DNA of 5,643 nt from a virus, in the IMG/VR virus record IMGVR_UViG_3300029514_000040; one strand, written 5' to 3'. This document shows positions 1 to 5,643 of this stretch, piece by piece. Positions within the stretch are counted from its first letter, which is position 1; each line of letters starts with the position of its first letter. Both the position numbers and the translations under genes were made by a program. The notes beneath the pieces were generated by a model, which did no database searches, was not told the DNA's origin, and saw only the letters and a program-made list of their open reading frames with translations.

Positions 1-89
1 AAACCCCGGCTATTTTTGAAAATGGCAATACCAGCCTTTTTAGGAGCCTTATCAACAGGCGCGAAAATACTGGGCGGAGTAAGCGGCCT
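1..89. repeat. Terminal redundancy (copy 1) from linearising a circular genome; identical to 5555..5643
   Basis: Base-by-base comparison shows 1..89 equals 5555..5643 exactly. This implies a circular unit of 5554 nt. The repeat spans the right arm and T-tract of the VP1 terminator and the first codons of VP2. Confidence 0.95.
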
Positions 90-2438: not shown

Positions 2439-2485
2439 AATAAATTACAAAAAACTATTGACAAATCCCAAAAGTGTGGTATAAT
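2439..2485 (+). promoter_or_regulatory. Promoter P1: consensus sigma70-type with extended -10 and an A-rich upstream element
   Basis: The -35 is TTGACA (2458..2463), followed by a 16-nt spacer ending in TGG. The -10 is TATAAT (2480..2485), giving the extended -10 TGgTATAAT. The upstream sequence is A/T-rich (AATAAATTACAAAAAACTA, 2439..2457). It lies 28 nt upstream of the orf65 ATG. Confidence 0.75.
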
Positions 2486-2512
2486 ATAATCAAAGAAAGG
2501 CAGGTAATAAAA

Positions 2513-2710
2513 ATGAGAAAGCCTAGACTGAACGAAAACACCATAGCAAAACTCGAAATCTACGGACAAGCAAAAAGCGGCAAAAACTACTACGAACTAA
2601 TAGACTACATTGATGCAGACGGACACCGTTACACAGAGCTTGAATGGACGAACCTAAAAACTGGAGACATTCAAACATTCGACTGGGAAAAATATACTAA
2701 AGGGGCTTGA
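2513..2710 (+). CDS. Hypothetical 65-aa hydrophilic protein (orf65), unknown function
   Basis: The track ORF 2474..2710 begins at a GTG inside the promoter. The plausible start is ATG 2513 (MRKPRLNENTIAKLEIYGQ...), preceded by the purine-rich GAAAGG at 2495..2500. There is no hydrophobic segment and I recognise no family. The gene is bracketed by promoter P1 and a strong intrinsic terminator, and stop TGA 2708..2710 lies in the terminator loop. Confidence 0.65.
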   Translation: MRKPRLNENTIAKLEIYGQAKSGKNYYELIDYIDADGHRYTELEWTNLKTGDIQTFDWEKYTKGA

Positions 2711-2727
2711 CAAGCCCCTTTTTTTTT
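2699..2727 (+). terminator. Rho-independent terminator after orf65
   Basis: AAAGGGGCTT (2699..2708) pairs with AAGCCCCTTT (2712..2721) as a 10-bp stem around the loop GAC. The T-run extends from 2719 to 2727 (9 T in total). Confidence 0.85.
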
Positions 2728-2755: not shown

Positions 2756-2962
2756 ATGTACGATAGAGCATATTATGAGCTGTATAAAGGGTACAGAGGG
2801 CCGGAAACACCGGACGAATGTGAATATTTCATCCGAAAACTTTACAGACAGCTCAAAAGAGCGTATACTGTAGAGGAGGCAAAAGCCATCATAGAAGAAA
2901 TCTACAAATACAAAGACCAAAAGGCAGAAATGGAGGTGAAACAGTGGCAATCATCAGTGTGA
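2756..2962 (+). CDS. Hypothetical 68-aa protein (orf68), Tyr/Glu/Lys-rich and probably helical, unknown function
   Basis: The ORF runs from ATG 2756 to TGA 2960..2962. A strong purine RBS AAGGGGGA sits 5 nt upstream. The protein is MYDRAYYELYKGYRGPETPDECEYFIRKLYRQLKRAYTVEEAKAIIEEIYKYKDQK.... I recognise no family. Confidence 0.65.
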   Translation: MYDRAYYELYKGYRGPETPDECEYFIRKLYRQLKRAYTVEEAKAIIEEIYKYKDQKAEMEVKQWQSSV

Positions 2963-3087
2963 AGAGTATCGAGAAAGCCATCAAAATCATGATGGACATT
3001 CTCGAAAAGCTGGACGAAATTTATCACGCGCTGCACGACAAGGAGGATGACAGCAATGGCAAAACGCACGAAAATGACCAGCAGTAA
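2959..3087 (+). CDS. Possible 42-aa acidic helical peptide (GTG start overlapping the orf68 stop; alternative ATG starts at 2989 and 2992)
   Basis: Hand translation gives (V/M)KSIEKAIKIMMDILEKLDEIYHALHDKEDDSNGKTHENDQQ, ending at TAA 3085..3087. GTGTGA overlaps the orf68 stop. There is no convincing SD. The ORF fills the otherwise unassigned gap 2963..3055 and overlaps the next gene by 32 nt in another frame. Coding status is uncertain. Confidence 0.25.
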   Translation: MKSIEKAIKIMMDILEKLDEIYHALHDKEDDSNGKTHENDQQ

Positions 3088-3175
3088 AGACAAAAAGGTC
3101 TTTACTCAGACGGCAAAAAAGACCAAGGCCGTCAACGTCAGTCCGAAAAACATGAGAGGAGGCACCAGACTGTAA
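3056..3175 (+). CDS. Small basic DNA-binding / packaging protein (phiX174 J-like, gokushovirus ORF8-like), 39 aa
   Basis: This gene is absent from the ORF track because it is too short. A consensus SD AAGGAGGA (3040..3047) lies 8 nt upstream of ATG 3056. The protein is MAKRTKMTSSKDKKVFTQTAKKTKAVNVSPKNMRGGTRL, with 12 Lys/Arg and 1 acidic residue. The MRGGxRL C-terminus and Lys/Arg-rich body match small basic proteins I recall from gokushovirus-like genomes. Its TAA (3173..3175) overlaps the next ATG as TAATG. Confidence 0.75.
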   Translation: MAKRTKMTSSKDKKVFTQTAKKTKAVNVSPKNMRGGTRL

Positions 3176-3417
3176 TGCTGAGACATTATTATGCAATCTA
3201 TGACAAGGTGGCCAAGACCTTCAGCGGCCTTTTCGAGCAACAGAACGATGCAGTTGCAAGCAGGCTCTTCGAAAGCCAGCAGAAGAACAAGGACAGCTTT
3301 ATCAGCGTCAAGCCGGAAGACTTCAGGCTGCACTACATCTGCACCATGGAGGACGAGACAGGCGAAATCGTCGATAACGTCAACACGTGCGTATGTGAGG
3401 GCAAGCCCAATGAGTAA
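3175..3417 (+). CDS. VP5: VP5-like non-structural protein (80 aa)
   Basis: The protein is MLRHYYAIYDKVAKTFSGLFEQQNDAVASRLFE...PEDFRLHYICTMEDETGEI. The YxIYD...F...ND..A.R.F and PEDF.L...G..D..TGEI pattern resembles the conserved small VP5 family of Gokushovirinae as I recall it. Its position directly upstream of VP3 is syntenic. The start is coupled to the upstream stop. Confidence 0.75.
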   Translation: MLRHYYAIYDKVAKTFSGLFEQQNDAVASRLFESQQKNKDSFISVKPEDFRLHYICTMEDETGEIVDNVNTCVCEGKPNE

Positions 3418-3886
3418 ATTTAGGAGCGCATACAGCGGGCAGGTAAGGCATACGAGCCTGACCGGCAACGGCCGTGAACCTGAGTATGAGTACAAGGTAA
3501 CGGACGAAGGCCGAGAGCTGGTAAAAACCGGAGAAACAGACGTCTATGCACTCATCCAGAGCCGTCTGGATGAAACCAAAATCGAGAACATCATCAAGCG
3601 GGCAACGTATGACCCGACTGCACTGGGCAGTCAGGACTGGCAGACCAGCGAGACGATGACCGATATTTCGGACGCGCCGACAAACTACCACGAGTGGTAT
3701 GGGCGTATCAAAGACGCGGAAGCGGAGTTTGACAAGCTGCCCATCGAAATCAAAAACAAGTGGGACAATGATGTCGAAAAATACATCATGGCCTATGGAA
3801 CCCAAGAGTGGGCAGACAAAATGGGCATAGCAAAAAAGAAAGCCGAAGCGGAAAAACCGGCTGAAAAAAGTGAGGTGAAAGAATGA
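3410..3886 (+). CDS. VP3: VP3 internal scaffolding protein (158 aa)
   Basis: The track ORF 3191..3886 is open further upstream, but that upstream part is Arg/Ser/Thr-rich off-frame-looking sequence overlapping VP5. The internal ATG 3410 has GAGGG 8 nt upstream and overlaps the VP5 stop (ATGAGTAA). It yields MSKFRSAYSGQ...TGETDVYALIQSRLDETKIENIIKR... with an acidic Lys/Glu-rich tail, typical of gokushovirus VP3. The stop overlaps the VP1 start as ATGA. Confidence 0.85.
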   Translation: MSKFRSAYSGQVRHTSLTGNGREPEYEYKVTDEGRELVKTGETDVYALIQSRLDETKIENIIKRATYDPTALGSQDWQTSETMTDISDAPTNYHEWYGRIKDAEAEFDKLPIEIKNKWDNDVEKYIMAYGTQEWADKMGIAKKKAEAEKPAEKSEVKE

Positions 3887-5532
3887 ACCGCAACAGTGAA
3901 TACAACTTTGCACAGAATCCGCAAGTCGGAGTGAGCCGCAGCCGATTCCAGCGCAACAGCGACAACAAAACGACCTTCAACACGGGCGACCTCATCCCAA
4001 TCTATCTGGATGAGGTGTTACCGGGTGATACGCACCAAATCGACGTTGCCTGTGTCATGCGAATGGCAACACCCATCTTCCCGGTAATGGACAACGCCTA
4101 TTGCGACTTCTACTTCTTTTTCGTGCCAAACCGACTCTTGTGGGAGCACTGGAAGGAGTTTATGGGCGAGAACAAGGAAACCGCATGGACACCTAAGACG
4201 GAGTACAGTGTGCCGCAGGTGACAGCACCAGCAGACGGATGGGAAGAAGGTACGCTGGCGGACTATCTGGGACTGCCTACCAAAGTTAAAGGCATCAGCG
4301 TAAGTGCTCTGCCGGGCAGAGCCTACGGTCTCATCTATAACGAGTGGTTTCGAAACCAGAACGTCACGCAGCCGACACTTGTAGAAGTGACGGATGCGAC
4401 CACGACCGGCAAAAACGACGGCAGCGCTACCAATGACAGCGCTATCACGTTGGCAAAGCCTCTCAAGGCAGCGAAGGTGTTTGACTACTACACCGGAGCT
4501 TTGCCGGAACCGCAGAAAGGCGAGCCAATCACGATTCCGCTAGGCGGAAACGCACCGATTTACGGTTTTAAGGACATCGCCTTAACCCAAAAAATCGAGT
4601 CAAGCCCGTCGTCTCTCAACAGGATATGGACGAGTAAACCGGGCGCAGATGGGAAAAGTCTCATCTATGAGGACAGCGGGGCGACCAACAAAGGACAGAT
4701 TGGGTTATACGAATTTGACCAATGGGGCAACTACAACGGGAGCGGAATCTTGGGTGCAGACCTCAGCAACGTCACGGCAGCAACCATCAACCAGCTCCGT
4801 CAGGCTTTCCAGATTCAGAAACTGCTCGAAAAAGATGCGCGAGGCGGCACGAGATACCGCGAGGTGCTGCGCGAACACTTCGGAGTTATCTCTCCTGACT
4901 CTCGTATGCAGATTCCGGAGTATCTGGGCGGCTACAGACTGCCTATCAACGTGTCTCAGGTTATCCAGACCTCTTCGAGCGACGAAACGAGTCCGCTGGG
5001 CAACACAGCGGCGCTAAGTGTTACCACAATGAACAAACCCATGTTTACCAAGTCCTTTACTGAGCATGGTTTCATCATGGGCCTGGCAGTCGTCCGTACA
5101 GACCAGACCTATCAGCAGGGTATCGAGCGCATGTGGAGCCGCAAAGGCCGGTATGATTACTACTGGCCGGTACTAGCAAACATCGGCGAGCAAGCCATCC
5201 TCAACAAAGAAATCTATGCACAGGGCAACGCAAAGGACGATGAAGCATTCGGCTATCAGGAAGCATGGGCCGACTATCGGTATAAGCCGAGCAAGGTTAC
5301 CGGCCTGTTCCGAAGCAACGCACAACAGAGTCTCGATGCATGGCACTATGCACAGGACTACGACGCGCTGCCTACTCTGAGCACCGCTTGGATGGAACAG
5401 GGCGAAGCCGAAATGAAGCGGACTCTTGCGGTACAGTCTCAGCCGGACTTTATTGCAGACTTCTACTTTATGAACAAAACAACGCGGTGTATGCCGGTGT
5501 ACAGCATTCCCGGCCTCATCGACCATCACTAA
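3883..5532 (+). CDS. VP1: VP1 major capsid protein (phiX174 F-type jelly-roll, gokushovirus form with large insertion loop)
   Basis: 549-aa ORF with RBS GAGGTGA at 3872..3878. Hallmark blocks are FNTGDLIPIYLDEVLPGDT, DNAYCDFYFFFVPNRLLW, LPGRAYGLIYNEWFRNQN, INQLRQAFQIQKLLEKDARGGTRY and IPEYLGG. A variable segment between about aa 218 and 297 corresponds to the gokushovirus-specific surface insertion. Confidence 0.97.
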   Translation: MNRNSEYNFAQNPQVGVSRSRFQRNSDNKTTFNTGDLIPIYLDEVLPGDTHQIDVACVMRMATPIFPVMDNAYCDFYFFFVPNRLLWEHWKEFMGENKETAWTPKTEYSVPQVTAPADGWEEGTLADYLGLPTKVKGISVSALPGRAYGLIYNEWFRNQNVTQPTLVEVTDATTTGKNDGSATNDSAITLAKPLKAAKVFDYYTGALPEPQKGEPITIPLGGNAPIYGFKDIALTQKIESSPSSLNRIWTSKPGADGKSLIYEDSGATNKGQIGLYEFDQWGNYNGSGILGADLSNVTAATINQLRQAFQIQKLLEKDARGGTRYREVLREHFGVISPDSRMQIPEYLGGYRLPINVSQVIQTSSSDETSPLGNTAALSVTTMNKPMFTKSFTEHGFIMGLAVVRTDQTYQQGIERMWSRKGRYDYYWPVLANIGEQAILNKEIYAQGNAKDDEAFGYQEAWADYRYKPSKVTGLFRSNAQQSLDAWHYAQDYDALPTLSTAWMEQGEAEMKRTLAVQSQPDFIADFYFMNKTTRCMPVYSIPGLIDHH

Positions 5533-5544
5533 AGAAAGGAGACA

Positions 5545-5571
5545 GCCGGGGACAAAACCCCGGCTATTTTT
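5545..5571 (+). terminator. Rho-independent terminator after VP1, probably leaky, upstream of VP2
   Basis: GCCGGGG (5545..5551) pairs with CCCCGGC (5558..5564) around the loop ACAAAA, followed by TATTTTT (5565..5571). It lies 12 nt after the VP1 stop and 4 nt before the VP2 ATG (5576, equivalent to 22). Confidence 0.8.
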
Positions 5572-5643
5572 GAAAATGGCAATACCAGCCTTTTTAGGAG
5601 CCTTATCAACAGGCGCGAAAATACTGGGCGGAGTAAGCGGCCT
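5555..5643. repeat. Terminal redundancy (copy 2); includes a truncated duplicate of the VP2 5' end
   Basis: This segment is identical to 1..89. ATG 5576 corresponds to ATG 22. It is an assembly or linearisation artefact, not a second gene. Confidence 0.95.

Follow-up and report, generated by a model that had tools for sequence, protein, structure and literature searches.

orf65 of a human gut gokushovirus, a small accessory gene in a hypervariable slot behind the predicted main promoter

In the gokushovirus genome IMGVR_UViG_3300029514_000040, we have analysed a small gene, orf65 (positions 2513-2710, plus strand, 65 amino acids), together with the promoter and terminator signals that bracket it at 2439-2727; the window denotes hereafter the whole stretch of 5,643 nucleotides (nt). 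In our reading, orf65 is probably a dispensable accessory gene in a hypervariable early slot behind the main promoter of this clade, carried as insulated cargo with a host-directed role. The architecture is well supported by sequence comparison, and the host-interaction or counter-defence role, which is proposed by analogy with known loci, is held with moderate confidence.

Predicted promoters, terminator and the variable slot

A preliminary description of this region had proposed a textbook promoter followed at short distance by an open reading frame (ORF) of 65 amino acids, and both were recovered on the plus strand. The predicted promoter, P1, comprises an A-rich tract at 2439-2457, which resembles a UP element, probably acts as one and has a CAAAAAAC core kept in relatives; a -35 hexamer, TTGACA, at 2458-2463; a 16-nt spacer; and an extended -10 box, TGgTATAAT, at 2477-2485 (TG at 2477-2478 and TATAAT at 2480-2485). 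It is a perfect consensus, scoring 12/12 plus the TG motif, and the sole 12/12 site of the genome; a search for the exact pattern TTGACA-N16-18-TATAAT gave a single occurrence in the window and none in 200 dinucleotide shuffles. Transcription is predicted to start near 2492, with a leader of about 21 nt that contains a Shine-Dalgarno region (GAAAGGCAGGT, 2495-2505), and the ATG of orf65 at 2513 lies 27 nt 3' of the -10 box.

Relatives were gathered through an invariant non-coding motif, ACGTCATGCTCTTCGNACGGCGC, which begins at 2390, about 70 nt 5' of P1, and is shared by 57 IMG/VR microvirus contigs; with other loci, 68 distinct contexts were compared. Most of these carry TTGAxx, 16-17 nt and TGnTAxxAT at the offset of P1, with a score of at least 10/12 and ahead of differing ORFs, and in 67 of the 68 at least one promoter of at least 10/12 lies in the region, genomes devoid of P1 retaining a second promoter, P2 (see below). 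The critical positions (TTGA.., TG and TA..AT) and the spacer length of 16-17 nt are conserved, the sequence of the spacer drifts, and the -35 variants found at this offset are TTGACA, TTGACT, TTGAAA and TTAACA. Moreover, CAAAAAA stands 5' of the -35 box in most relatives, and the leader motif AGAAAGG..AGGT is kept among them, also 5' of unrelated ORFs. Since P1 holds a constant place relative to the conserved non-coding element whichever ORF comes next, it is not private to orf65, as had been assumed; it is predicted to be the main sigma-70/sigma-A type promoter of the clade, upstream of a swappable slot and serving the block that reaches VP1. In the relative MG945135, the slot of which contains no terminator, P1 is the sole strong promoter of the genome.

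Most of the genome is 85-92% identical in the closest GenBank relatives. Their alignment with the window covers 2121-2516/2520, a stretch with promoter, leader and ATG; it is interrupted at 2516-2520 and picks up again at 2748-2770, just 5' of orf68, and the gap in these relatives is filled by other small ORFs that mostly lack a terminator and abut the orf68 homologue. At least seven families of slot ORFs, of 56-68 amino acids each, were found behind P1, namely A (orf65), B (MKAKSLGHLS...), C (MRKPRFTREEL...), D (MLHxYEIRKL...), E (cysteine-rich, MKNLYKDLDTE...), F (MKQKEYKFL...) and G (MKYDVRF...), and the slot is occupied by A, A+G, A+D, F+A, B+C or D+E, or is empty. Three genomes (L057, L059 and L081) have an empty slot, with the position of P1 and the orf68 homologue separated by no slot ORF; the -10 box of L081 is partly decayed. 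Close relatives of the window vary in this slot alone. Profile-profile comparison with hhalign detected no similarity between most pairs of families, the weak exceptions being A-C (63% probability, over the N-terminal 35 residues) and D-F (67%). Families A and C both begin with M(R/K)KP(R/K)(L/F) (window 2513-2530; L004 1689-1706 and L005 4163-4180), and their likeness may reflect distant homology or a common N-terminal motif.

Furthermore, a survey of presence and absence among relatives, as the preliminary description had suggested, found orf65 to be variably present, with the above alternatives in the slot and at least seven independent deletions. These deletions have differing breakpoints and remove the -10 box of P1 and the 5' part of orf65 (window equivalents within 2440-2698; L002, L030, L041, L051, L083, L086 and L089), the hairpin/P2 module described below being kept in all of them. 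orf65 occurs on both types of downstream backbone, with homologues of orf68 behind every slot variant on the backbone of this genome. Among genomes with a VP1 90-93% identical to that of the window some carry orf65 and some do not, and KT264788 shares about 90% identity with the window in the cassette and only 66% in VP1. Repeated loss, swaps between backbones and presence or absence among close relatives indicate that orf65 is mobile and dispensable, and the repeated loss suggests that it is costly in some hosts.

A strong intrinsic terminator had also been predicted, and it is found behind the gene as a hairpin at 2699-2721 (plus strand; 10 bp, five of them G-C, with a 3-nt loop, GAC) running into a nine-T tract at 2719-2727, its 5' arm being formed by the last three codons and the stop, and the TGA at 2708-2710 extending from the final base of the stem into the loop. 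The centroid fold computed for the predicted messenger RNA contains this hairpin. Compensatory double changes were observed in 6 of the 10 pairs (e.g., GGGGC/GCCCC, GAGGC/GCCTC, GAGGG/CCCTC, ACCCGG/CCGGGT and CAGGGC/GCCCTG), 90.6% of the cells are paired, and none of 500 shuffles matches the score. Variants selected with at least six Ts have runs of 7-12 Ts, and the variants fold at -8 to -17 kcal/mol. At the sequence level, this G+C-rich stem-loop of conserved structure with its U-tract qualifies as a putative terminator. Moreover, it is kept where the stop codon comes earlier, for instance in L027, and would thus be selected as a structure and not as coding sequence.

The same hairpin contains a second predicted promoter, P2, on the plus strand. 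The -35 box (TTGACA, 2707-2712) consists of the loop flanked by two bases from the end of the 5' arm and one from the start of the 3' arm; the T tract serves also as spacer; and the -10 box (TACAAT, 2729-2734) follows 16 nt past the -35 box, for a score of 11/12. As the stem sequence changes, TTGAC at the junction of 5' arm and loop remains invariant in 17 of 17 aligned variants, at a spacing of 16-18 nt (17 in most) from TACAAT, TATAAC, TATACT or TAAAAT. P2 is kept in every genome with P1 and orf65 deleted; in L037, which has lost the promoter and ORF upstream, the hairpin and T-run are decayed and TTGACA-17-TATAAC remains, a condition found in part in L076 and L003. The module is also present behind other ORFs (in L003, L006, L050 and L070, and behind families D and E), so that it is not tied to orf65 and the terminator, too, is not the private one first envisaged, its loop being the -35 box of another promoter. 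We infer that the module halts P1 transcripts and restarts transcription as P2.

Two observations were made further downstream. A third promoter-like site, TTTACA-17-TATACT (10/12), lies within orf68 at 2841-2869 and is conserved in many relatives, which may reflect conservation of the coding sequence. In KT264799 (L006 3972-4046), the terminator/P2 module is separated from the orf68 homologue by a hydrophobic ORF of 24 amino acids, MVDVIQSIAIMLLSIAVIINAKRR, which is a candidate membrane or lysis peptide; in L059, a sequence related to it forms a fusion with a different ORF.

The orf65 gene and its product

Comparative data indicate that orf65 is a genuine gene under purifying selection. The median pairwise ratio of nonsynonymous to synonymous substitution rates (dN/dS) across 20 loci is 0.30 in frame, whereas shifted frames give 1.0 and 1.25, and synonymous changes (for example, AGA to CGA and CTG to TTG) leave the N-terminal MRKPRL intact. 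Among 5.8 billion proteins, 73 homologue clusters with 66-93% identity were found, nearly all of 60-78 amino acids and all on contigs of no more than 7 kb. When 1.84 billion representative proteins were searched exhaustively with a profile, few further members were added, for a total of about 75 clusters, in most of which the length of 65 amino acids is conserved; this search yielded one divergent member, P0082, behind the same leader, and no credible relative outside microviruses, P0076 and P0081 being spurious matches to long repeat proteins. The reading frame is open back to a GTG at 2474, inside the -10 box region of P1, which accounts for the 78-amino-acid versions returned by gene callers; given this location of the GTG, we discarded the 78-amino-acid product as the principal one. 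In L012 and L014, the start codon at the position of 2513-2515 is ATA in place of ATG, and the remainder of the frame is intact; these two genomes, too, speak for the dispensability of orf65.

The predicted product has a mass of 7.7 kDa, an isoelectric point of 5.7 and hence a mildly acidic character. It is hydrophilic, with a grand average of hydropathy of -1.05 and a maximum of -0.58 in a Kyte-Doolittle window of 19 residues, and has no transmembrane segment; E-type lysis proteins possess a transmembrane helix, and the opinion given at the outset that orf65 is not one of them therefore stands. AlphaFold, with an alignment of 56 sequences, predicted a fold composed of a helix (residues 8-17), four antiparallel strands and a short helix (residues 58-63), with a predicted local distance difference test (pLDDT) of 89.8 and a predicted template modelling score (pTM) of 0.73.

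Several weak resemblances were set aside. The match to phrog_8677 (expectation value, E, of 0.007) extends over 22 residues and concerns a family without known function, and the one in a Gammaproteobacteria genome is a chance motif. No match was obtained in plasmids, no accepted copy of the family was found in bacterial genomes, and scans with Rfam and for tRNAs gave no RNA gene within or near the cassette. In metagenome-assembled genomes of Oscillospiraceae, a lipoprotein of about 133 amino acids with SGKYYYELLD...FDGEDNCY (L033 2757-3206, L034 4722-5273 and L035 2635-3132) is 41% identical to residues 18-58 of orf65, with an hhalign probability of 90% over 41 columns. As a relative of orf65 this lipoprotein is unproven, since the match was selected by the search pattern itself and may be due to chance, and the lipoprotein belongs to no Pfam family; if true, the match would hint at a Firmicutes host.

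Proposed role of orf65 and alternative explanations

In the account that we propose, the host RNA polymerase would start at P1, near 2492, on the double-stranded replicative form and produce a short monocistronic orf65 messenger RNA with a strong ribosome-binding site. Most P1 transcripts would end at the hairpin and U-tract (2699-2727), and P2 (2707-2734), built into the terminator, would restart transcription into orf68, VP5, VP3 and VP1, so that the orf65 cargo would be insulated and the essential genes would not be starved. The soluble protein would then act stoichiometrically on a host component, in counter-defence or host takeover; an action on the replication elements of the phage itself is unlikely.

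Several points weigh against this account. The host-directed role is deduced from the position, variability and repeated loss of the gene, and no known function was found for the other slot families. Searches of Pfam, PHROGs, NCBIfam and PDB sequences with the single sequence and with a profile returned nothing significant for orf65, and Foldseek with the pLDDT-90 model gave no significant PDB match, with the homologue of orf65 itself as the only return from a viral structure library; the database and structure searches recommended at first have thus placed the protein in no family and with no fold outside these microviruses. The promoter, start site, terminator efficiency and activity of P2 are deduced from sequence and comparison, and the related loci come mostly from one IMG/VR data set (3300045988), so that the sampled diversity may be local. 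Finally, the fit of these signals to the RNA polymerase and ribosome of the host is assumed. The extended -10 box and the long Shine-Dalgarno sequences may point to a Firmicutes-like host.

Among the alternatives, superinfection exclusion or competition between phages, with orf65 acting early against co-infecting microviruses of the same gut host, is unlikely. It is favoured by the place of orf65 as first gene behind the strongest promoter, by the many relatives with alternative slot genes that co-circulate in one metagenome, and by a mosaic exchange that denotes frequent co-infection; however, the protein has no membrane or envelope-targeting feature, and sequence data do not separate exclusion from counter-defence. 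We consider it quite improbable that orf65 is a DNA-binding regulator of the iterons and origin-like element (2150-2440), controlling replication or P1, as the preliminary description had contemplated. The gene does adjoin the iteron array (2158-2357), the nine plus-strand GT[TG]GAAA copies of which all lie within 2167-2350 and nowhere else in the genome, and its conserved N-terminus, MRKPR, is basic. Nevertheless, relatives carry the array whatever the content of the slot, and the median number of iterons is 7 both with and without orf65, which argues against a dedicated iteron binder; the conserved element and iterons persist beside unrelated ORFs or an empty slot, the isoelectric point of the protein is 5.7, and no DNA-binding family was matched. 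Weak matches (E about 0.1) to PUR-alpha, a single-stranded-DNA binder of Whirly-like type whose repeat consists of four strands and then a helix, appeared with the first, lower-confidence model (pLDDT 77) and vanished with the pLDDT-90 model, with no Pfam match.

A part in lysis, as soluble effector or timing regulator, is very unlikely. The window contains no recognisable lysis gene, there being no hydrophobic plus-strand ORF of at least 20 amino acids anywhere in the genome, and, according to a global survey, lysis-associated accessory genes differ among microvirus lineages (Kirchberger et al., 2022; PMC9239249). Against this stand the lack of a transmembrane segment and the many similar genomes in which orf65 is missing or deleted, some with an empty slot (L057, L059 and L081), which must still lyse their hosts. 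It is hardly credible, at last, that orf65 has no protein function and that the region is a transcribed spacer or leader that tunes the downstream genes: the repeated deletion and replaceability of the region and the mutated start codon of two genomes would fit a spacer, but the in-frame dN/dS (0.30, against about 1 in shifted frames), the length of 65 amino acids kept in most clusters, the synonymous changes that preserve the N-terminal residues and the confidently predicted fold do not.

Returning to orf65 as host-directed cargo, a bolder version can be formulated, in which the slot would serve gut gokushoviruses as an island of counter-defence genes, the first of its kind in single-stranded-DNA phages, with at least seven families of small inhibitors, mostly without detectable mutual similarity, orf65 as an inhibitor of a bacterial immune system with a new fold and the deletions reflecting hosts that sense or punish it; we regard this version as possible but doubtful.

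Microviruses count among the most abundant human gut phages, and they are regarded as nearly devoid of accessory genes (Kirchberger et al., 2022; PMC9239249). In this context, a fixed promoter-linked slot through which a gut gokushovirus clade shuffles at least seven families of proteins of about 60 residues is a candidate place for host-manipulation genes in these viruses. The slot families constitute a small and defined set of candidates, easy to synthesise and test, for the dealings of 5-kb single-stranded-DNA phages with host defences or competitors. Furthermore, a hairpin that would combine a terminator with the -35 box of the promoter that follows offers a compact way to insert cargo into a polycistronic genome with the downstream genes unsilenced, and may be of aid in engineering. 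If orf65 had no host-directed activity, the finding would amount to yet another small hypothetical protein of a mosaic virus.

Genome context and comparison with known systems

The genome is complete and circular, with 5554 nt and a terminal repeat in the window (1-89 = 5555-5643), and contigs identical to it originate from human gut metagenomes, cohorts with the exact sequence being represented, for instance, by PRJEB12123 and ERR1190712. All genes are carried by the plus strand: VP2 (16-876), VP4, the replication initiator (877-1899), a non-coding region of 613 nt between VP4 and orf65, orf65, orf68 (2756-2962), which is the first gene of the conserved downstream block and the right edge of the variable slot, orf47 (2944-3087), a basic protein of 42 amino acids (3047-3175), VP5 (3175-3417), VP3 (about 3410-3886) and VP1 (3883-5532). 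The G+C content (GC) is 0.49 for the genome, 0.54 for VP1, 0.36 for the cassette, 0.41 for both orf65 and orf68, and 0.34 for the upstream non-coding region. The cassette is A/T-rich, as had been noticed by eye; since low GC is common to the conserved orf68 and the non-coding region, orf65 is not distinct from its flanks and its composition is no marker of separate acquisition, contrary to what had been suggested.

In the non-coding region, three G+C-rich hairpins lie directly 3' of VP4, at 1905-1941 (perfect stem of 14 bp), 1985-2010 (perfect stem of 11 bp) and 2058-2118 (about 29 nt per arm, alternating CG/CA-rich), with no plus-strand T-run behind any of them. Two elements of the iteron array, TGTGGAAAA (2306) and TTTTCCACA (2331), are inverted relative to each other and resemble DnaA boxes. 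It is followed by a non-coding element at 2350-2432, present about 30 nt 5' of P1 in the 57 IMG/VR microvirus contigs and nearly invariant among genomes otherwise about 70% identical. Its invariant core (2390-2431), ACGTCATGCTCTTCGNACGGCGCACCGCGCCTANCGCATGAC, forms a nested hairpin, and a small hairpin ahead of it (2370-2382) varies by compensatory changes; the element may serve as the replication origin or as the nick site of the VP4 initiator. A XerCD dif-like site noted by eye at 2428-2457 was discarded, this stretch being variable between relatives. Immediately 3' of VP1, a terminator-like hairpin with ATTTTT (5544-5565) is kept in MG945135 (L004 4631-4652) and, with a stem one base pair longer, in KT264788 (L001 1597-1619), and probably attenuates transcription ahead of VP2.

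The microvirus accessory repertoire is reported as limited in the global survey, which describes small accessory proteins averaging about 65 amino acids, to which no function has been assigned (Kirchberger et al., 2022; PMC9239249). orf65 agrees with these in its size class, the lack of a known function and the occurrence in differing lineages, possibly by recombination, whereas the passages of the survey that were considered contain no account of a promoter-linked hypervariable slot or of a terminator/promoter module (PMC9239249). A search of the literature yielded no report of morons, or of a variable slot linked to a promoter, in microviruses.

The moron is said to have been defined by Hendrix and Juhala from lambdoid and HK97-type phages. 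Like the morons of tailed phages, orf65 is an extra gene between elements that are adjacent in relatives, in this case those with an empty slot; it has a sigma-70 type promoter ahead and a factor-independent terminator behind, as predicted, and a GC below that of the structural genes; some close relatives carry it and others do not, and it has been exchanged between diverged genomes. Unlike morons, it is carried by a single-stranded-DNA microvirus of 5.5 kb for which no prophage state is known, so that expression outside the lytic programme does not apply; its promoter would be the main promoter shared by the clade and not one borne by the gene, the predicted -35 box of P2 is embedded in its terminator, and its low GC is common to conserved neighbours. 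As P1 is present regardless of the ORF, insertion would add one promoter, P2, and the unit may be taken to consist either of orf65, terminator and P2 or of P1, orf65 and terminator. The initial view of a moron-like gene is thereby retained for an accessory gene bracketed by promoter and terminator and moved between divergent gokushovirus backbones, and is not supported as regards signals private to orf65 and a distinct GC.

In phiX174, transcription depends on the promoters PA, PB and PD with leaky intrinsic terminators. Both are microviruses that would rely on host sigma-70 promoters, with hairpin/U-tract terminators on one strand setting gene dosage; in phiX174, however, the signals are located among core genes, and neither cargo that can be swapped nor a -35 box inside a terminator is known.

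Anti-CRISPR and anti-defence loci consist of diverse small ORFs at a fixed position behind a strong early promoter. Unlike some of what such loci contain, no aca-type helix-turn-helix regulator was found at the slot, and neither a helix-turn-helix nor a known anti-defence family was detected in orf65, orf68, orf47 or the other slot families. In common with them, the slot keeps a fixed position in otherwise syntenic genomes behind a conserved strong upstream promoter, and its ORFs, of about 60 amino acids, mostly mutually dissimilar and single or paired, are often gained, lost and swapped. The resemblance of orf65 to morons and anti-defence loci arises, in summary, from its place as first gene behind the strongest predicted promoter, with a strong ribosome-binding site, from its interchangeability with mostly unrelated small proteins, and from its exchange and repeated loss among these genomes.

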